Positions 5,869-16,591 of a stretch of 64,000 nt of DNA are shown one piece after another. The position numbers were made by a program, and so were the translations under genes. This DNA comes from Thermoanaerobaculia bacterium (GTDB lineage: Bacteria > Acidobacteriota > Thermoanaerobaculia > Multivoradales > Multivoraceae), in contig OY761158.1 in NCBI GenBank assembly GCA_963664405.1, positions 1,408,001 to 1,472,000 on the forward strand, given 5' to 3'. The notes under the pieces were generated by a model that saw nothing but the letters and a program-made list of their open reading frames with translations, had not been told where the DNA came from and ran no database searches. Position 1 is the first letter of the stretch. Each line of letters begins with the position of its first letter.

Positions 5869-7172
5869 TGGGTTCTAACAACAGTAGCACCGCGCCACCG
5901 GTCGAGGATCACGGTGAGCCCGAAGAGGACCGGAGCGACGACGTGGAAGATGAGCCGAGGGAAGCTCGATAGCAGCGAGAACTCGTAGTCGAAGGTAGCG
6001 GTGAAATATCGAAGGACGTAGACACCGAGGAGCAATAGCACCAGGGAACCGATGACGCGGGTCTCCGCTCGCGCGACCAATAGGGGGATCAGCAAGAGAC
6101 AGACCGGGACTAGGTGCCACTCGGGCCGAAGGAAGGTCTGCCACAGTGCCGCTGCGATCTCGGGCGCTCGACCGGCTTCGAAAGATCCACTCTGCGAGTG
6201 TGAGAACAGGCCGTGTCGATAACCTTGGACCAGCCACGGCAAGCAAGCCAGGAGAGGCGGGGCGAGCCAGCGGCTAAGGATGGAGATACCAGGCCGATGC
6301 CCCGCCTGGAGGCGACGCCACAGGGCCGCGCCGATCAGCAGAACGGCAAGGGCGACTCCTTCGAGCTTCGCCGACGCCGCGAGTCCGGCGAGCAGGCCGA
6401 TCTGCAAATCACCAGTGAGACTCGGGGGCCGGCCCAAGGAAGGCAGAGCAGCAACCAGAGCCAGAGCGATCACCCAGTCTGAGCTCCCCGCCATCAAGTA
6501 GCCGACACCGAACATGACCAGGGTGACGGTGATGATGGCAAGTGAGAACTGTGCCAGGACTCGTTCGACATGCCAGGAACGCAGAGCCTCGCGCGCGCAC
6601 ACCAGCAGCATCGCGAGGAACGCGGCCGACCACAGCAGCAAGGGACCTTCACGGAAGCCGCCGGCAGCCAATGAATGAACAGCATAGAGCTCGGGCAGAA
6701 GCTGGGGATAATCGGGATGTAAGACGAGGTTCCAGTCGTAACTCAGATATTCGTAGTCAATGCCGCGGAGAAGAAAGTATCTGTGGCCCTTGATGCCCCA
6801 GTGGTAGATGAAATCTGGAAAGGTAATCCGCCCCGACGCGGCGAGAACCGCGAAGAAGCCGGTCGCGGTGACCGCCAGCGCGTCGGCCCATCCCAGTCGA
6901 GTCCCCTGTTCGACCGGAGGCCCAGCTGAGCCGATCCAACGGAAGCCGGCGATGGCGAGTCCGGAGACCAACACCACCAGCAGCGCCGGATGCCAGGGCA
7001 AGCCGACCAGATCCAGCCAAGCAAGAGTGATGTGGACTACGAGCAGGCCGGTCGCCAGATACATACACCCGCGAAAGCCAGCGGCGTCCTCATCGCCCAT
7101 AGCGGGGCTCCCGAAACCCCTCCCGAGAGCAGGAAGAGTTGCCAACAAGGCGAGGAGTGCAAGAAGACCCAC
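5865..7172 (-). CDS. Polytopic membrane protein, probable GT-C fold glycosyltransferase
   Basis: Many TM segments; HWGIKG, HPDYPQL and KLEG motifs; start uncertain (GTG at 7172 chosen to avoid overlapping the next gene). Confidence 0.55.
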   Translation of the reverse strand: MGLLALLALLATLPALGRGFGSPAMGDEDAAGFRGCMYLATGLLVVHITLAWLDLVGLPWHPALLVVLVSGLAIAGFRWIGSAGPPVEQGTRLGWADALAVTATGFFAVLAASGRITFPDFIYHWGIKGHRYFLLRGIDYEYLSYDWNLVLHPDYPQLLPELYAVHSLAAGGFREGPLLLWSAAFLAMLLVCAREALRSWHVERVLAQFSLAIITVTLVMFGVGYLMAGSSDWVIALALVAALPSLGRPPSLTGDLQIGLLAGLAASAKLEGVALAVLLIGAALWRRLQAGHRPGISILSRWLAPPLLACLPWLVQGYRHGLFSHSQSGSFEAGRAPEIAAALWQTFLRPEWHLVPVCLLLIPLLVARAETRVIGSLVLLLLGVYVLRYFTATFDYEFSLLSSFPRLIFHVVAPVLFGLTVILDRWRGATVVRTQ

Positions 7173-8426: not shown

Positions 8427-9662
8427 ATGGACTTCAACGACAGCTCTGAGGAAGCGGCATTCCGCGCCGAGGTGCGGGGTTTTCTCGACGCCAACGCAAC
8501 TCTGAAGACGAGCAGCGACGACGACATCTTCGCCGACCGCGGGGACGAGAAGGATCTCGTCCGGCGGGCACAGGAGTGGCAGCTCAAGAAAGCCGAGAAC
8601 GGCTACGCTGTCATCCATTGGCCCGAGGAGTACGGTGGCCGCAACGCATCGCCGATCCAAAGTGTGATCTTCGGCGAGGAAGAGCGCAGGTACGACGTTC
8701 CTCCAGGCGTTTTCGCCATCGGCCTCGGCATGTGCGGACCCGTGCTGATGACTTACGCTGATAAAGAGACAAAAGAGAGACTCCTCCCTGGGATGGCGAG
8801 CGGTAAAGAGATCTGGTGCCAACTCTTCTCGGAGCCGGTTGCGGGTAGCGATCTCGCTGGTCTACGCACGCGCGCCGAGCGCGACGGAGACGACTGGGTC
8901 ATCAACGGCCAGAAGGTATGGACCTCCGGCGCGCACTACTCCAAGTACGGGATTCTGGTCACGCGCCACGACCCCAGCCTGCCGAAGCACAAAGGCCTCA
9001 CCTTCTTCTGGTTGGATATGGAGAGCCCGGGAGTCGAGATCAAACCGATCAAGCAAATCTCCGGCGGCTCCAACTTCAACGAGGTTTTCTTCACCAATGT
9101 GCGCATCCCCGACTCGCAGAGGCTGGGAGAGATCGGGGAAGGTTGGCAGGTCTCTCTCACCACTCTCATGAACGAGAGGCTCGCCGTCGGCGGGGCTGGA
9201 GCGCCCGACTTCGACGACATCTTCCGGCTTGCCCGTCGTGTCGAGCTAAATGTGGCCCCGGCCGTCGTCGACGCAGGCGTGAGGAGCAAGCTGGCAGATT
9301 GGTATGTTCAGGCTGAGGGTCTCCGACTGATCAGGGCACGCACCCAAACCAAGCTCGGTCGTGGCGAGACCCCTGGCCCCGAGTCCTCGATCGGCAAAGT
9401 GGTCAGCGCCAACAAGCAGCAAGAGATTGGCTCTTTCGGAATCGACCTGCTCGAACAGACCGGCGTGCTCACCGACGGCGAGCTACAACCGGGGGACGAG
9501 CTCTTCCAGAGTGGACTCTTGGGCTCACCTGGAATGCGTATCGCTGGCGGCTCCGACGAGATCCTGCGCAACATCATCGCCGAGAGAGTCTTGATGTTGC
9601 CTGGTGACATCCGAGTCGACCGCGACGTAGCCTATTCCGACATCCCGACCGGCCAGGTCTAA
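8427..9662 (+). CDS. Acyl-CoA dehydrogenase family protein (large subunit of the pair)
   Basis: WCQLFSEPVAGSDLAGL, NGQKVWTS, FNEVFF and IAGGSDEILRNIIAERVL motifs. Confidence 0.9.
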   Translation: MDFNDSSEEAAFRAEVRGFLDANATLKTSSDDDIFADRGDEKDLVRRAQEWQLKKAENGYAVIHWPEEYGGRNASPIQSVIFGEEERRYDVPPGVFAIGLGMCGPVLMTYADKETKERLLPGMASGKEIWCQLFSEPVAGSDLAGLRTRAERDGDDWVINGQKVWTSGAHYSKYGILVTRHDPSLPKHKGLTFFWLDMESPGVEIKPIKQISGGSNFNEVFFTNVRIPDSQRLGEIGEGWQVSLTTLMNERLAVGGAGAPDFDDIFRLARRVELNVAPAVVDAGVRSKLADWYVQAEGLRLIRARTQTKLGRGETPGPESSIGKVVSANKQQEIGSFGIDLLEQTGVLTDGELQPGDELFQSGLLGSPGMRIAGGSDEILRNIIAERVLMLPGDIRVDRDVAYSDIPTGQV

Positions 9663-9752
9663 GCAACGGAAAGTTCACGTCACGCTGACACAGCAGTGGA
9701 TGCCGCCCTTAGCGCTTGCGCTACAGAGCGCTACAGATGCTACAGTCAGTTC

Positions 9753-10001
9753 ATGAACAAGAGCATCAGTCAGCGGGAGCTTCGCAACGACTCAGGCGCG
9801 ATTCTGCGTGAAGTCCAGGCTGGACAAACCCTAATCGTGACTCGGAACGGTACTCCGATCGCGGAGCTTCGACCCTTACCACCCCGTCGCTTCGTCCCTC
9901 GAGCGGTCATCGGCGACGCCGCGCGGCGGGCGCCCAGCATCGACGCAGCTCAGTTCCGCAGGGATCTCGACGAATCCGTGGATCACACGGTCGATGGCTG
10001 A
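9753..10001 (+). CDS. Type II TA antitoxin, Phd/YefM family
   Basis: ISQRELRNDSGAILREV...VTRNGTPIAELRP; overlaps the start of the PIN toxin. Confidence 0.85.
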   Translation: MNKSISQRELRNDSGAILREVQAGQTLIVTRNGTPIAELRPLPPRRFVPRAVIGDAARRAPSIDAAQFRRDLDESVDHTVDG

Positions 10002-10395
10002 TCCAACTCGCGGCCTACTCGACACCTCGGTAGTCATCGATCACGACCAGATCGACCCGGAGCGGCTCCCCGACGAATCGGCGATCACGGCAGTGACGCT
10101 CGCAGAGCTCGCAGCAGGCCCCCATGCCACGGCGAATGAACAAGAGCGTGCCCGACGCCAGGACAGGCTGCAGTGGGCCGCGGCCACCTTCGACCCTCTA
10201 CCCTTCGACGCCAACGCCGCTCGGACCTACGGCCGCGTCTTTGCCGCCGTCCGTGCCGCCGGTAGATCGAGTAGAAGCCGGTTCGCCGATCTCCTGATCG
10301 CGTCGACCGCTGCGGCGAACGGCCTTCCGCTATACACACGAAACCCAGCCGACCTCAAGGCACTCGAGGGCATCGTCGAGATCGTGGAGCTTTGA
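9994..10395 (+). CDS. vapC: Type II TA toxin, VapC/PIN domain ribonuclease
   Basis: LLDTSVVID, TLAEL, DLLIASTA and LYTRNPAD acidic PIN motifs. Confidence 0.88.
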   Translation: MADPTRGLLDTSVVIDHDQIDPERLPDESAITAVTLAELAAGPHATANEQERARRQDRLQWAAATFDPLPFDANAARTYGRVFAAVRAAGRSSRSRFADLLIASTAAANGLPLYTRNPADLKALEGIVEIVEL

Positions 10396-10510
10396 ACGTC
10401 GAGAAACATGGGCGGCGGCGTGAGCCCGGCTGAACCTCGACCCAAGCAAGTCTCAACGATCTGAGAACCTCCGAGCGTTCAGCCGCTGAGGAAGAAGGAG
10501 ACTCCCGCTC

Positions 10511-10520
10511 GTATATCCTT
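10511..10520 (+). promoter_or_regulatory. Possible -10 element for the retron ncRNA/RT transcript
   Basis: TATATCCT about 6 nt upstream of the predicted ncRNA 5' arm in a GC-rich background; no clear -35. Confidence 0.25.
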
Positions 10521-10525
10521 GCGCT

Positions 10526-10678
10526 GCCGGAGCCCCCGAGGATTAATTATTGGTCGTGACAACTGCGACCGTGTAGTGTCAATGGTCCGGCCAAGGCAGA
10601 CCATTACAGGCCTCGTAGCTCATCTCAACTGGCGCGAATGGCGCCGTCGTCGGATGGAAAATCCGGAGGGGCCTCGGC
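10526..10678 (+). ncRNA. Candidate retron msr-msd ncRNA
   Basis: Imperfect 19-nt terminal inverted repeat (10526-10544 / 10660-10678) enclosing hairpins at 10552-10570, 10581-10605 and ~10621-10656, directly upstream of a retron-type RT. Confidence 0.6.
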
Positions 10679-10688
10679 GCTTCCTGTC

Positions 10689-12444
10689 GTGAGCATCAAT
10701 TCACTGGACCGCGAGATGCGCGAGCGTTTCCTAGCTGTGGAATCGCGTGCTGAACTAGCAACGATCATCGGATTCAGTGACCGGGAGCTCTGCAACATCC
10801 TGTACGGTCGCGGCGAGCGGTCGAAATACCGCACGTTTGAGACTCCTAAAAAGAGGGGCGGCAAGAGAACTATTTCGGCACCACCACACAGGCTGCGCAA
10901 CCTGCAATCTAAGCTCGCCGATGTGCTCTACAAAGTATTTGAACCGCGAGCTTGTGTACACGGATTCGTTCGCGGTCGCAGCATCGTAACTAACGCCGAA
11001 AAAACACTGCGGGAGAAGGTACCTCTTGAATATCGATCTCGAGGACTTCTTCCCTACGATTCACCTCGGCCGAGTACGGGGCGTCTTTACGAGCCCTCCT
11101 TTCAACATGCCTCCGGCGATCGCGACTGTCATCGGGCAGATCGCCTGCGATACTGACGGCAAGCTACCGCAGGGCGCGCCGACGTCGCCCATTGTGTCGA
11201 ATCTAGTTTGCGGGCCGCTTGACACAAGCCTTCAGCGACTCGCTCAGTCGAACGGTAGCTTCTACCCACGATATGCCGACGACATGAGCTTCTCGACCAA
11301 CAGAAGCAAGTTCCCCGATGACCTCGGCCACAGGCTCCCTGGCGGTACCTTTTCCGTTGGACCGCATCTTCGGTCACTCATAGTAAGCCACGGCTTCAGA
11401 ATCAACTTCCACAAGGTGTGGCTGAGAACGAGTGCAGAACATCAGGAAGTGACGGGCCTCACGGTCAACGAGTTTCCTAACATCACGCGGCGTGTAATCA
11501 GACAAACCCGCGCGATTCTCCACAACTGGGACACTACTTCGCTGGGCCAAGCAGCGCAGGTCTTTTCTCAAAAGTGCACTTCAGGTCAACCCACCGGCGA
11601 AGATGCATTCAAGCGTTTCGTTCACGGCCGGCTTTCGTTCATTGGGATGGTCCGCGGTCCAGACGACCCGGTCTACCGTCGGCTTGCAACGAAGCTCGCG
11701 TTCATCGAAAAAAGGACGCCTCCGGACTCGGGCGGGGCGGGGCCCGCGCCGTTGCGAGGAGGGCAAGCCACGACTTCGGGGTGGCAGAGAGTATATGACC
11801 GACTCCGAGAGCACCTGTACCTGCTCCAACTGGACCACGCCCAATCGGATGAGTTTGCTGCTGACCAGCTCGGAACCGCCTTTGGCTATGAGAGAGACCT
11901 CCTGATCACGGCAGGGCACAACCTGGACGGGTTTGACGTCCGCGCGATGGATCATTCGCTTCCGGAGAACGGGATCACTCCAATCAAAGTGAAGTTTCTG
12001 AACGAGCCCCATGGCGTCGACTGTGGTCTCATAACTTTGCCTCCGAATTCGCGTCGAGGATGGCCAGGACAAATCCCAACCCAGGAGCGAATCCCGCAAG
12101 TTGGAGAGGAGGTCGCGACGATAGGGTACCCCCCCCGTTGCCCTGCAGCGGCCCTCGTTAGAAGCCTAAGAGGAGACGTTCAGTTTATCCAGGTGAACTT
12201 TCGGCAAGATCCGGGCCTCAGCGGCTCGCCGCTCGTCGACAAGCGGGGCTATGTACTCGGTATTGTCGTCGAGAATGCCCTCCAGAAGCCCAAACGCACG
12301 GGGATCGATGAAGAGGCCAGCAGCGCCTCCACTGAACATGGTCAGGTACTACCTCTTGGTTACGTGCATCGACTACGGCAAATCGATTGGGGAAGTCGAG
12401 CCGGCAGCACACTGCCGGCACCAGCGATTCCCTCGTCGGAATAG
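10689..12444 (+). CDS. Retron-type reverse transcriptase fused to a C-terminal trypsin-like serine protease (type XI-like); split by an extra A at 10999-11004
   Basis: Removing one A joins the two ORFs: SIVTNAEKHCGRRYLLNIDLEDFFPTI (retron NAxxH), LPQGAPTSP, RYADD, QEVTGLTVN (VTG); protease motifs ITAGHN, VDCGLI, GYP and PGLSGSPL. Start could be 10638, 10689 or 10716. Confidence 0.88.
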
Positions 12445-12594
12445 CTGTGGCGTGAAACTCTATGAACACCGGGCTAGCCAAATCGCCTGGCGGCACGTGC
12501 TGAACTCTCGGAACCGAGCGCCCCGGCTGTGAGCTTCTTCGGGAGAGGAGTGCGTCCCCAGGCTTATCTGCAGACGGGTCGCGCAGCGGTCTGT

Positions 12595-13224
12595 CTAGAC
12601 CGAAGCACTCTGGCGAGTACTTACGGCCTCGTACCAGCGCTTTGTACGGCTGTGCCCGTCTTCCGGGCCGAGCTTGACCCAACCTGCGAAGTCGACGACA
12701 ACGAGTGCGGTGATATCGGCCAGCGAGAAGCTGCTGCCTGCCAAGTATTCGGAGTCGGCCAGGCGCTGGTCCAGCATAGCGAAGAACTCGACCCCCCGGG
12801 CCAGCCCGCGCTCGGCGAGCTCGGGGATCTGCTCGTAGTTTGTAGGCCCGGTAACGGCTCGCCCAGCCATTCGCTTGCTGCGATTACGCAGCGCGTCGGC
12901 GATCGGCCAGAGTCCTTCTAGCTCGACGCGTGCGTTCCAGCTCGAGACCAGTCCGCGCTCCTCAGGTGTCGTTCCCATCAGCCGGGGCTCGGGCACCATA
13001 GCTTCCAAGTAGGTCGCGATCCCGATGTTCTCGGTGAGGCAGGTCCCATCGTCGAGCTGGAGTACGGGGACGGTGCAGCGTGGGTTGATCTCTTTGAAGG
13101 TATCGGTAAGTTGCTCTCGTTGCCGGAGATTGACCTCGACGGTCTCGACAGTGAGACCTTTCTCGGCGATGAAAATGCGTGCCCGGCGCGGGCTCGGAGC
13201 CGTCTGACAGTCGTAGAACTTCAT
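12595..13224 (-). CDS. Glutathione S-transferase family protein
   Basis: APSPRRARIF, INPRCTVPVL and FSLADITAL motifs. Confidence 0.9.
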   Translation of the reverse strand: MKFYDCQTAPSPRRARIFIAEKGLTVETVEVNLRQREQLTDTFKEINPRCTVPVLQLDDGTCLTENIGIATYLEAMVPEPRLMGTTPEERGLVSSWNARVELEGLWPIADALRNRSKRMAGRAVTGPTNYEQIPELAERGLARGVEFFAMLDQRLADSEYLAGSSFSLADITALVVVDFAGWVKLGPEDGHSRTKRWYEAVSTRQSASV

Positions 13225-13262
13225 ATGCTTCCTCCGGGAGTCGAGCCTGGCGACGCGCCGGG

Positions 13263-14135
13263 TCAAGCAGTCGCAGGCCTGTCGTGCGTTGATTTGCTCA
13301 GGATCTCGTCAAGAACAGGTTTGATCATCTGCTTGAAGAGCTCAGGGTTCTCTGACATCGGAAAGTGCCCGAGGCCCGACATGAGCTCGCACTGAGCCCC
13401 AGGAATCCGTGCCCGGATCTCCTCTAGATGAGCCGACGTACAAGCCCAGTCGTACTCGCCATTGAGCACATAAACCGCTACCCGGTCGGTCTCGATCTCT
13501 TCGACGACGTCTCGCAAATCATGGTCGATCGAGAAGTAGAAGAGATCACCCTTGAATACCGGCGGCGCTCCCTGGCTGTATACCCACGCTGTCTCCCGCT
13601 TCGCCCACTCGGGACTGGTCGGCGCCATCAGCCCATACATCATCGACGCCTTGAAGTCGTTCGATACCCGAGGGTGGTTTAGGGTGTCGATGAACCCTCC
13701 CGGCGTGAACAGAGCCGCCTCCAGACCGATGACGGCTCTGAAGCGATCCGCATGCTGGTGAGCCAGATCGAGAGCGAGATGCCCTCCTATCGAGCTCCCC
13801 ATATACACAGGGCGGTCGAGATCAAGCGCATCAGCCAGAGCCAGCGGCACCGACATCAGAAAACTCTTGGTCAGCTTGTACTCCTCGGCCCACCACTCCT
13901 CCGAGGTGGGCGGGACAGATTTGCCGTGAAAGGGAAGGTCGTAAGCGATGACCCGAAAATCTCGCGTGGTCTCACTGTCGGCGAGCAAGTGCCGCCACTG
14001 CCGCCCGTCGGCACCCGCTGTGTGTTGCAGAACTAGGGGCACACCCGAGCCGGCCTCCTCGAAGTAGACGCGATACTCGACGCCCTCGATCTCCAGGTAC
14101 ACATACCGTCCGGTGACCTCGTCGAACTTAGCCAT
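13263..14135 (-). CDS. Alpha/beta hydrolase
   Basis: HTAGADG, DLPFHGKS, GSSIGG nucleophile elbow and GHFPMSE. Confidence 0.85.
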   Translation of the reverse strand: MAKFDEVTGRYVYLEIEGVEYRVYFEEAGSGVPLVLQHTAGADGRQWRHLLADSETTRDFRVIAYDLPFHGKSVPPTSEEWWAEEYKLTKSFLMSVPLALADALDLDRPVYMGSSIGGHLALDLAHQHADRFRAVIGLEAALFTPGGFIDTLNHPRVSNDFKASMMYGLMAPTSPEWAKRETAWVYSQGAPPVFKGDLFYFSIDHDLRDVVEEIETDRVAVYVLNGEYDWACTSAHLEEIRARIPGAQCELMSGLGHFPMSENPELFKQMIKPVLDEILSKSTHDRPATA

Positions 14136-14553
14136 CGATCGGCTCTCCCCCACCCGTCTCCCGCTCAACCGCCACATAGGATTCGCGTAGTAACTCGAGC
14201 AGCCGACCGACGGCTCGGTAGTAGGCGTAAAAGGTCATGCGATCCCCACCGATCTCGAAGCCGTGGTGCACCTGAGCGCCCCAGAGGTCCTGATAGTAGG
14301 GCGGCGGTACCGGCTCGAGCAGCTTCTTCCAGTCGTCCTCCGGCGCCTCGATCGTGATCGTCGACGGGTAAGAGTGGCGCCGCGCAAAGTCCGACGCCTC
14401 AATCTTGAGCACTTCACCGTCGTGAATATGAATGCAGTAGCGAGCCTTCCCAATGCCGAGCTCGACGCAGGTGTCGAGGTATCGGCCAGCCAGACGAAGC
14501 TCGGGATCTTCGCAGGCCGCCTTCTGGAGCTCGGCAACAGGGATCTCGATCAT
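14128..14553 (-). CDS. Small hypothetical protein (SCP2-like fold possible), coupled to the hydrolase
   Basis: 141-aa ORF overlapping the hydrolase start. Confidence 0.55.
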   Translation of the reverse strand: MIEIPVAELQKAACEDPELRLAGRYLDTCVELGIGKARYCIHIHDGEVLKIEASDFARRHSYPSTITIEAPEDDWKKLLEPVPPPYYQDLWGAQVHHGFEIGGDRMTFYAYYRAVGRLLELLRESYVAVERETGGGEPIDG

Positions 14554-14583
14554 GCACGCTCCCAGAGTGATGCGACCATTTTG

Positions 14584-15189
14584 CTAAAGCCCCCGCGCAA
14601 CACCAAGGAGTTGGTGAGGTCGATGGACCCCACTCGCCATGAGGCCGAAGAACCCCATCGCGCGAATCACTTCTTGCTCACCATCGCCGGATGCTACAAG
14701 CGTAAGCTGGACGGCGGACTCCAGCTTCTCGACGTCCATCTTCCAACCCCGAAACTCGCCCATTGCGTCGACATGCACCGGCACGACCCTGGCCAGCGCT
14801 TCGAGAGTCGGTGCGGGCCCGGAGACTCGAATCTCGAGGCCCCGCTCGATCTCTCGTTCCTCCGCCACCGCACGTAGCATCACTTCGTCGAGATCAACCA
14901 GATGCTGCCGAAGCCGGTTGATACTCACCCGGCTCCAGTCTGTGTTGGGATCCGCCAGAAGCAGACCGACGACTTCTTGAATGGCCGCGATCGCGTCCTG
15001 TCCCACACTGCGAGAGGCCACCTTGGCCGGCGAGTCGTGATGATGACGCTGGATTCCCAGATCAGAGAAGGGATCTTCGCAGCAGTCTGATCGTATTTGG
15101 GCACCGACCCCTTCGACGCCAGTCGCCGCAATAAACACCAGGGCTGCGAGAACGGCGATGATATTGAAAGACGGTCTCTCTCGGGGCAT
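14584..15189 (-). CDS. Secreted hypothetical protein with His-rich segments
   Basis: Signal peptide; HHH and C-terminal HRPHQL. Confidence 0.55.
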   Translation of the reverse strand: MPRERPSFNIIAVLAALVFIAATGVEGVGAQIRSDCCEDPFSDLGIQRHHHDSPAKVASRSVGQDAIAAIQEVVGLLLADPNTDWSRVSINRLRQHLVDLDEVMLRAVAEEREIERGLEIRVSGPAPTLEALARVVPVHVDAMGEFRGWKMDVEKLESAVQLTLVASGDGEQEVIRAMGFFGLMASGVHRPHQLLGVARGL

Positions 15190-15286
15190 CCTTCACCTCC
15201 AGAAGCGAGTGATCGAAGCACTCAACATTGTATCGACAGTAAAGGGAGCCAGGCGTGGACTTGGAGCGAGGCTCTCTCGTAGATCC

Positions 15287-16591
15287 CTAGGCCCTGCCTG
15301 CCAAGCGATACTCGAGAACCATCTCTTCGCTCAGCGACGTTCCGAACCCCGGCGCTGTCGGGGCGAGGTAGTCACCGCGATCCACCTTCGGCGTCATCGC
15401 ATCGAGCACGGGTGATCCCGCGGGAAAGCTCTCCGCCATCGTGCAACTGGGCGAGGTGAGCGCGATCGGTAGCCCCCATACGCTACCCCCGCGGTGCGGC
15501 ATCATCTCGAGCCCGGCGGCCTCGACCAGATCCCTGATCCTCCTCCCCGCGGTGAGACCACCACACCAGGTGATATCTGGCTGCAGGATCTCGGCCGCCC
15601 CCAGACGCACCAACACGTTGAAGCCGTGCTCGGTGTACTCGTGCTCGCCGCAGGCCACCCGAGTCCACTTCTTTCCCTTGCCGCCGATGCGCTGCACAAG
15701 CTCGGCATAGCCGAAGACGTCGTCGGGCGAGAGCAGCTCCTCCATGAAATAGAGCTTCGCCGTCCGAACCTGCTCGGCGAAGCCAACCGCCCACTCGACA
15801 GTCCCGTTGCGCGACACACAATCGGTCATCAGATTGCCGTCGGGTCCTACCGCCTCACGGGCAGTCATGACTTCCTCGACCACCTTGCTCTGCGCCTCCG
15901 CCGAGGTGTGTGGTCCGATCTGAGGGAAGAGCTTGAAGTGACGCACTCCTTGCGCGCGGGCCGCCGGGATGTCGCCGCCCGACTGGTAGAGCGCGATCCG
16001 ATCCCGCGGCTGCCCGCCGATCATCTTGTAAACGGGCTGCTCAGCGTACTTTCCGGCAATGTCCCACAACGCGTTGTCGACCGAGCTCAACGCCATCGTG
16101 AACAAACCCCGCCGCCCGTAGAACATCGCAGAGCTGTACAGCTGGTCCCACAGCTGCTCGACATTGAGCGGGTTGGCACCCATAAGCAGGTGGCGGAGGT
16201 GACCGTGAATGATCTCGACCGCGGCGCTGCCACCTGCGCCCTGACCATAACCAACGACCCCCTGGTCGGTCTTGATGACAGTGATGATCGCAGACGGGAG
16301 CTGGGCGAAGGGGCCGTCATACCTCCACCGGCGGGGGTCGTCATCGGAGGCGAAGCTCGGCGGGTCGAGCAGACCGTCCGAGCGAGCACCGATATAGACC
16401 GGATAGGCCTTGACCTCGCGGATCTTGATCGGCGGCTTGCTCGAGGCACCCACTGCAGACTTCGCGCCCGCCCCCTGTGCCCCGATCCCGCTCCCCGCTC
16501 CGAGCCCCGCAGCCAGAGCCGCAAAACCGCCGATCCCCAAGAAACTGCGCCGCGTCGCCGACAGCATGATGTCGCCAGTCTCAATTGTCAT
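15287..16591 (-). CDS. Mandelate racemase/muconate lactonising (enolase superfamily) protein, rhamnonate dehydratase-like, with Tat signal
   Basis: TRRSFLG Tat motif; VDNALWDI, KLF, D-E-E metal ligands, GEHE and QPDITWCGG. Confidence 0.8.
   Translation of the reverse strand: MTIETGDIMLSATRRSFLGIGGFAALAAGLGAGSGIGAQGAGAKSAVGASSKPPIKIREVKAYPVYIGARSDGLLDPPSFASDDDPRRWRYDGPFAQLPSAIITVIKTDQGVVGYGQGAGGSAAVEIIHGHLRHLLMGANPLNVEQLWDQLYSSAMFYGRRGLFTMALSSVDNALWDIAGKYAEQPVYKMIGGQPRDRIALYQSGGDIPAARAQGVRHFKLFPQIGPHTSAEAQSKVVEEVMTAREAVGPDGNLMTDCVSRNGTVEWAVGFAEQVRTAKLYFMEELLSPDDVFGYAELVQRIGGKGKKWTRVACGEHEYTEHGFNVLVRLGAAEILQPDITWCGGLTAGRRIRDLVEAAGLEMMPHRGGSVWGLPIALTSPSCTMAESFPAGSPVLDAMTPKVDRGDYLAPTAPGFGTSLSEEMVLEYRLAGRA

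Follow-up and report, generated by a model that had tools for sequence, protein, structure and literature searches.

The DNA analysed here (the window) is a stretch of 64,000 nucleotides (nt) from a Thermoanaerobaculia bacterium (contig OY761158.1, positions 1,408,001 to 1,472,000 of the forward strand). Its positions 10526-12444 carry, on the forward strand, a gene for a reverse transcriptase (RT) fused to a serine protease, together with a candidate non-coding RNA (ncRNA) upstream of it. We conclude that this locus is probably a horizontally acquired and recently inactivated retron of type XI. An extra A in a run of adenines breaks the reading frame of the RT and a second lesion removes 11 amino acids (aa) from the protease, while all conserved residues are kept, which suggests that the inactivation is recent. 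The first-pass annotation of this DNA had put the locus forward as the best candidate for a novel system in the window. That description cannot be kept, since the class of RT-protease retrons was defined as type XI by Mestre et al. in 2020 (PMC7736814, in the part of the paper available to us) and PADLOC profiles for it exist; the locus is probably a recently disabled copy of a known type of anti-phage system encoded by one gene, and not a new one.

Identity of the RT-protease

The gene is distributed over two overlapping open reading frames (ORFs) in different frames, 10638..11156 and 11026..12444 in the ORF list of the window. Homology to retron RTs follows the first frame (frame A) up to the residues NAEK, which end at 11003, and resumes in the second (frame B) at H-C-G from 11005, so the break can be pinned to the run of six adenines (A6) at 10999-11004. 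Counted from GTG 10689, the two frames together encode 105 + 479 = 584 aa, in agreement with the protein of about 584 aa that had been proposed before. We regard GTG 10689 as a likelier start than ATG 10638, because the N-terminal length then equals that of the closest homolog (P0002) and the upstream RNA element stays non-coding, as in relatives.

The first part of the gene (10689..11003, forward strand, frame A) comprises the N-terminal 105 aa up to NAEK of region X and corresponds to positions 3-98 of the PADLOC profile RT-Protease_XI. The second part (frame B) begins with the RT palm and thumb, including motif 1 NIDLEDFF (11005..11715, the domain end being approximate), assigned from Pfam RVT_1, PADLOC and the fold. 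It continues into an HtrA-like, trypsin-fold serine protease domain lacking a PDZ domain (11872..12360), assigned from Pfam Trypsin_2, Foldseek and the invariant triad columns, and ends at the TAG stop codon listed at 12442..12444, about 28 aa beyond the protease domain. All of the RT motifs named in the first-pass annotation were located: NAxxH of region X, which the frameshift splits into NAEK on one side and H on the other, and, in the translation of frame B, LPQGAPTSP (11164-11190), YADD (11272-11283) and VTG of region Y (11449-11457). The same translation places the catalytic His in TAGH at 11917-11919, the Asp in VDCGLI at 12019-12021 and the Ser in GLSGSP at 12220-12222.

Profile searches assigned both halves above the Pfam gathering score (RVT_1, E 1.3e-9; Trypsin_2, E 3.7e-9, residues 283-413). 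The best PADLOC family was RT-Protease_XI, which matched the C-terminal part of the protein with E 4.4e-94 and 314 bits over profile positions 100-489 of 506, and the N-terminal part with E 3.8e-27; the 25 best listed PADLOC families for either part were all retron RT families. A protein search gave 1329 matches at E <=0.001 among 8000 scored candidates. Trypsin_2 was present in 58 of the 119 other proteins listed, the full-length ones being typically about 530-625 aa long, and the nearest homologs among the matches listed, P0002 and P0003, were 64% and 61% identical to the window protein. In the alignment of these 58 Trypsin_2-bearing homologs with the window protein (59 sequences), the YADD aspartates, VTG and all three triad residues were invariant.

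The AlphaFold2 model of the 472-aa part had a mean predicted local distance difference test score (pLDDT) of 85.6. In Foldseek searches the nearest solved structures of its RT half were cryo-EM structures of retron Eco2 (30-34% identity; for chain 9i2f_C, E 3.4e-13 and 34%), and its C-terminal half was nearest to Deg1, Rv3671c, DegS and HtrA1 (target TM score 0.46-0.71). The fold search was needed for the protease part, as a sequence-only search of solved structures returned marginal matches around GxSGxP, the best with E 0.015. The Pfam scan at E up to 0.1 contained no PDZ family, and no signal peptide was seen in the same scan. A quick maximum-likelihood tree was made from 86 RT cores, without outgroups from group II introns, diversity-generating retroelements (DGR) or UG/Abi RTs. 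In it the window RT joined P0002 and P0003 with a Shimodaira-Hasegawa-like approximate likelihood ratio (SH-aLRT) support of 98, and this trio was placed in a clade of eight protease-fused RTs (SH-aLRT 95). The protease-fused RTs overall did not form one clade, and the backbone of the tree was weak. Profiles, fold and RT-core tree thus agree with the type XI identity that had been read from the motifs, and the sequence and model evidence identifies the predicted product as a clade-8 retron RT fused to an HtrA-like serine protease.

A frameshift in the RT and a deletion in the protease

The one-base correction of the first-pass annotation amounted to a sequencing fix, and this part of its account was not borne out. 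We checked the A-run in contigs from four public runs (X1, X3, X4 and X6) representing four samples from two studies. The assembly may itself derive from one or more of these runs, for which no library type is recorded. The A6 run was found in the contigs of all four with 0 differences and 0 gaps, and contigs of three runs spanned 10400-12500 in one piece. The contigs built from 31-mers were error-free across 5.9 kb at a depth of 4.6-8.9, which argues against a shared homopolymer error. The samples that contain the A6 allele are dated from 2023 to 2025.

In relatives this site looks different. NAxxH and the following LNxDL lie in a single frame in 21/21 full-length relatives from named genomes, and no conserved homopolymer and no homopolymer-linked frameshift (0/21) was found at the site in these sequences. 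The frames, the motifs, the contigs and the relatives together define the lesion as a one-base insertion (+1 frameshift) in the A6 run at 10999..11004. The extra A is real and the gene is broken as sequenced: without correction frame A runs into a stop codon at 11154-11156, and translation from GTG 10689 ends after a product of 155 aa. The RT and protease accordingly do not form one continuous ORF here, the RT N-terminus being in the other frame, whereas the RT core and the protease still share one. This split marks a damaged member of type XI and not a separate family.

The second lesion lies in the protease (12133..12159). The segment from GYP to IQV is 18 aa long in the window protein, in comparison to 25-32 aa in 58/58 homologs and 29 aa in the nearest relatives. 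The 11 missing residues correspond to a strand-turn element ahead of the conserved G-x-V-x-A-L strand in the second barrel of the protease, and in the AlphaFold2 model the pLDDT falls below 50 at residues 374-377, exactly at the deletion site. The DNA at this site was identical in the contigs of X1, X3 and X4. A run of eight C (12131-12138) directly precedes the deletion and is the second homopolymer at a lesion. The claim that the catalytic triad is intact therefore stands for the His, Asp and Ser themselves, which are kept and invariant, but not for the domain around them, and the deletion may have cost the protease its function.

Apart from these two lesions, the protein is well preserved. 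Of 55 alignment columns conserved to at least 90% in the other 58 sequences, the window protein deviated at 0, where the range across all 59 sequences was 0 to 7; ten nearly invariant N-terminal columns were kept too, provided that the H is taken from frame B. Hence either the damage is young, or the gene still serves in some way.

Among the 23 loci with a protease part, decay was also seen in L068, in which the N-terminal third is missing in frame; its RT-protease ORF (L068:3093-4283) begins only at profile position 154, making it another damaged copy. The second such case is L046 (2632-4261), from a Parcubacteria metagenome-assembled genome, in which the RT and protease are encoded by separate adjacent ORFs. 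A match to the ncRNA module described below lies in the same locus at 5890-5933, about 1.6 kb downstream of the gene and not upstream.

Probable acquisition and genomic context

A homolog of the RT-protease at E <=1e-20 was found in 0/56 other genomes of the family. The GC content is 0.555-0.598 inside the retron, compared with 0.61-0.655 beside it. Upstream of the retron are two acyl-CoA dehydrogenase genes followed by genes for a Phd/YefM antitoxin and a PIN toxin. Downstream, on the other strand, are genes for a glutathione S-transferase, an alpha/beta hydrolase, two unknown proteins and an enolase-superfamily enzyme. The dehydrogenase pair was syntenic in 14/14 relatives' loci, but the toxin-antitoxin pair, the retron and the downstream genes were present in none of these 14 loci within 1.5 kb. 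Taken together, the absence from 56 genomes, the drop in GC and the restriction of synteny to the dehydrogenase pair suggest horizontal acquisition. Synteny ends at the second acyl-CoA dehydrogenase gene, and insertion boundaries or repeats could not be defined.

As regards the neighbourhood of the RT-protease itself, no neighbour protein cluster was common to more than two of 22 loci (21 relatives and the window), which fits a single-gene system. A scan of 10300-12700 for sigma-70-type promoters gave 0 promoter-like sites, and the two terminator-like sites found in the same interval were no more than in shuffled sequences.

Several side observations concern the surroundings. The antitoxin and toxin genes (9696-10395; VapBC-like, with an 8-nt overlap) lie directly upstream of the retron; their GC of 0.65 is host-like, unlike that of the retron, and they may not have arrived with it. 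Between the PIN stop codon and the ncRNA there is a perfect inverted repeat of 9 bp, with 41 nt between its arms (10427-10435 and 10477-10485), which is bracketed by a second possible long-range repeat (10413-10424 with 10518-10529). The retron-bearing contig was exactly 5905 nt long, with the same ends, in three runs (window positions about 9555-15459). These identical ends indicate two branch points in the assembly graph, one near 15459 and the other inside the dehydrogenase gene, of which the genome contains 8 paralogs. Elsewhere in the genome there are other RT-like matches, which come as pairs with identical scores at two places (G000:C1:3047822-3049612 and 6397799-6399589), and a third related place (2677472-2680759). 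They resemble copies of a repeated RT-bearing element, possibly group II introns.

An upstream ncRNA module in relatives and in the window

Published accounts disagree over an ncRNA in type XI. In the accessible part of the 2020 classification the type is described without a recognisable ncRNA module (PMC7736814), and the part of a 2026 survey that we could consult gives no covariance model for it (PMC13712802). The available text of an experimental census, on the other hand, includes clade 8, type XI, among the validated ncRNAs, from other loci (PMC10849725).

We examined the 350 nt upstream of the RT in 21 full-length RT-protease loci. In 18/21 of them the 3' arm of the best long-range inverted repeat ended between -54 and +24 of the RT start, with a span of 113-177 nt, and a bracketing repeat was within the top three in 20/21 loci, L036 being the one without any. 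When the geometry of the two arms (a1 and a2) was fixed, 11/21 loci beat all 60 dinucleotide shuffles and 17/21 were reached by at most three. Directly 3' of the 5' arm, the relatives have a hairpin with a conserved ACUGCG stretch. In an alignment of 14 sequences, its six pairs were 78.6% paired, compared to 64.1% in shuffles (0/500 reached the observed value), and five of the pairs changed on both sides (26/500 shuffles).

Full-length ncRNA alignments made with MAFFT (A3, A4 and A5) lost the a1/a2 register, and RNAalifold on A4 gave approximately zero energy; the covariance model was therefore restricted to the 5' module. This model (R1) describes 44 nt and was built from 14 other loci, the window being left out. 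Over 80 relatives' loci it gave 30 matches at E <=1, with scores of 18-31 bits, all of them on the RT strand and 29/30 at most about 300 nt ahead of the RT ORF. Eighteen matches were outside the training set, 17 of these upstream of the RT. Ten of the untrained loci were typed with PADLOC: three are RT-Toprim loci of type I-C (L013, L018 and L024), four are RT-TIR loci of type XII (L034, L040, L021 and L033), and the remaining three match the RT part of the type XI profile only. Examples of the module, among loci L009-L088, are L013:2356-2399, L018:2501-2544, L034:2543-2586 and L021:2519-2562, and it was seen at RT-only loci also. The comparison shows that canonical RT-protease loci carry a putative ncRNA bracketed by a1 and a2, the predicted first hairpin of which is common to types I-C and XII. 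The 44-nt module looks like a mark of a single ncRNA family that extends across this RT clade.

In the window, the best match of R1 in the full 64 kb (both strands, unfiltered) was at 10539-10582 on the forward strand, with 16.9 bits and E 0.23, the next best having 10.7 bits; when the search space is the 300 nt that precede the RT start, the same match has E 0.0011. It sits where a retron msr would be expected, and we assign 10539..10582 (forward strand) as the putative conserved 5' module, composed of the inner a1 end, a spacer and the first hairpin, whose stem pairs 10552-10557 with 10565-10570 and whose loop bears the ACUGCG motif. The minimum free energy (MFE) fold of 10520-10688 pairs 10526-10530, 10532-10536 and 10540-10544 with 10660-10678. 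Together with the geometry of the relatives, it places a candidate a1 arm at 10525..10544, forming 6 + 5 + 5 pairs with a2, with one A.C mismatch and a 3x3 internal loop. The candidate a2 arm (10660..10679, forward strand; MFE fold and relatives' motif) is preceded by the stretch GGAUGGAAAAUCC, which resembles the AAG..GAAU motif ahead of a2 in relatives, and it ends 9 nt before GTG 10689, within the range of the relatives, whose a2 ends at -46 to +24 relative to the start. The variable middle (10581..10645, forward strand), presumably the msd template, has two small hairpins (10581-10605 and 10631-10645) drawn from the inverted repeat I8 and the MFE fold, with no comparative support.

The fold of 10520-10688 as a whole is mildly unusual (z -1.78), and there is no unpaired G directly after the 5' arm in the window, unlike in most relatives. 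An Rfam scan of 9000-14000 at E up to 10 gave no retron family; a 17.6-bit match to a viral frameshift element at 12812-12855 is due to chance. The ncRNA that the first-pass annotation had placed upstream of the gene is thus, by these predictions, present in outline and weaker than in relatives: the conserved 5' hairpin module is there, but the a1/a2 repeat is not significant in the window copy.

Proposed mechanism and alternative explanations

By analogy with the related one-protein retron Eco2, the RT of intact relatives would most likely bind the first msr hairpin, prime on the branching G next to the a1/a2 duplex and copy the msd into multicopy single-stranded DNA (msDNA). The msDNA-protein complex would then hold the fused protease in check; once a phage factor damaged or bound the msDNA, the protease would be released, host proteins would be cut by it and the infection would be aborted. 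In the window copy, the frame changes at the extra A, after region X and ahead of RT motif 1, so the full protein would not be made from the start codon, neither msDNA nor protease would be expected from the main start, and the 11-aa deletion would be a second hit. A frameshift upstream of both domains might be a "safe" loss, in which the presumed toxin (the protease) and the presumed antitoxin function (msDNA synthesis) go together.

The model for such caging comes from Eco2, in which, according to the part of the study accessible to us, the Toprim domain stays caged by msDNA until the phage nuclease DenB sets it free (PMC12916289). The caging of the protease that the first-pass annotation proposed is a reasonable analogy to it. 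Our literature search, supplements aside, found no phage-defence or protease-caging experiment on type XI.

A number of points weigh against an acquired and recently inactivated retron. The proposed mechanism is taken over from a retron of another type, I-C. The a1/a2 pairing in the window is not above chance, 20/60 shuffles being as good when ungapped stems are scored and 102/300 by duplex energy, and the ncRNA call comes from a single 44-nt module whose 16.9 bits fall below the 18-31 bits of the relatives. Since contigs drop rare variants, a minority A5 allele or transcriptional slippage may exist, and a systematic homopolymer error shared across the runs, whose libraries are of unrecorded type, would be an unlikely further source of the extra A. 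AlphaFold2 still builds a trypsin fold around the deletion, as an alignment-driven model would anyway. Finally, the absence of decay by point mutation would fit a gene under selection too.

The last of these points bears on the idea that the retron is functional and that the frameshift is bypassed or switched, by low-level +1 ribosomal slippage, RNA-polymerase slippage on the A-run or slipped-strand phase variation between A5 and A6. In each case the amount of a dangerous RT-protease would stay very low or could be switched. The shift does sit in a homopolymer, the codon after the lysine is ACA, which is probably rare in a genome of 62% GC, 0/55 conserved residues are lost, and the same allele recurs in samples from 2023 to 2025. 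Six adenines are, however, short for efficient slippage or phase variation, none of the 21 relatives has a homopolymer-linked frameshift at the site, the contigs of the four runs show A6 only, and the added deletion of 11 aa points to decay, so that we consider a functional, bypassed retron unlikely. A specific form of it, in which the A-run is a recoding or phase-variation switch that keeps a self-toxic RT-protease nearly silent and yields traces or switchable amounts of the full 584-aa protein, seems quite improbable to us. It keeps some weight because all 55 diagnostic residues are conserved and the allele persists over those years, and if true, this would be the first retron controlled in such a way. 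An artefact of sequencing or assembly, with one intact ORF of 584 aa as the real gene, would likewise explain why no conserved residue has been lost. Long-read assemblies err most often by indels in homopolymers, and this genome consists of a single contig of 6.78 Mb. Given the identical, gapless A6 in independent contigs of four runs, and k-mer contigs whose freedom from errors over 5.9 kb implies accurate reads, we find this quite unlikely.

It is very unlikely, in our view, that the two ORFs constitute a split but working system, in which a 472-aa product started from TTG 11026 (RT core and protease) acts alone or with the N-terminal fragment, perhaps as a protease in its own right. In favour are an ORF that starts with TTG and one relative, L046, in which the RT and protease occupy separate ORFs. 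Here, however, region X and motif 1 lie on opposite sides of the break, which falls within the RT fingers and not between the domains, one continuous protein is encoded in 21/23 relatives' loci, no ribosome-binding site was seen, although no search aimed at one was made, and the protease itself bears a deletion. That the RT is of a different class (a group II intron, DGR or UG/Abi RT) and no more than retron-like has next to no probability, in view of the PADLOC ranking of either part, the Eco2 chains as the best solved-structure matches, the presence of both NAxxH and VTG, and the retron-type ncRNA module upstream of the RT.

We therefore prefer an acquired and recently inactivated type XI retron. 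As a freshly broken retron of one gene, whose presumed antitoxin function and presumed toxin would both be lost through one upstream frameshift, the locus may be a useful case for studying how cells rid themselves safely of such systems. Of the two, the more useful by-product is the ncRNA module found across the clade, and the 44-nt model could help to annotate the ncRNAs of types XI and XII, which are needed for retron editing.

Comparison with known systems

Among HtrA, DegS and DegP proteases, the window protease shares its fold with Deg1, DegS, HtrA1 and Rv3671c, as well as the His-Asp-Ser order and GxSGxP. It differs from them in being fused to an RT, in having no PDZ domain in the Pfam scan, and in its marginal sequence similarity to solved proteases.

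Eco2 (Ec67), a type I-C retron with an RT-Toprim protein, has the nearest solved RT structure and belongs to the same RT clade. Like the window system it is a one-protein retron with a C-terminal effector domain (PMC12916289, in the part available), and the predicted 5' ncRNA module is also found upstream of three RT-Toprim loci of type I-C. The effector is a Toprim nuclease in Eco2, in place of the serine protease here, and, as far as the available part of the same paper goes, Eco2 is the only one for which msDNA caging, trimer formation and activation by a phage nuclease have been shown. Type XII (RT-TIR) is close in the RT, as the N-terminal part of the window protein matches RT-TIR_XII with E 2.4e-28 and RT-Protease_XI with E 1.4e-27, and the same module precedes the RT in four type XII loci. 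The C-terminal domain, however, is Trypsin_2 and not TIR, and the C-terminal part scores 314 bits with the type XI profile as against 264 bits with that of type XII.

The closest correspondence is with type XI itself. The domain order and size agree (584 aa here, 565-595 aa in type XI), RT-Protease_XI is the best profile match, the system is a single gene without a conserved neighbour, and the RT motifs and the triad are present. The differences are that the window gene is frameshifted, that its protease lacks the 11 aa found in 58/58 protease-fused homologs, and that the nearest homolog of the window protein is only 64% identical. In addition, the accessible part of the 2020 paper gives no recognisable ncRNA for the type (PMC7736814), whereas the relatives compared here show a predicted element bracketed by a1 and a2.

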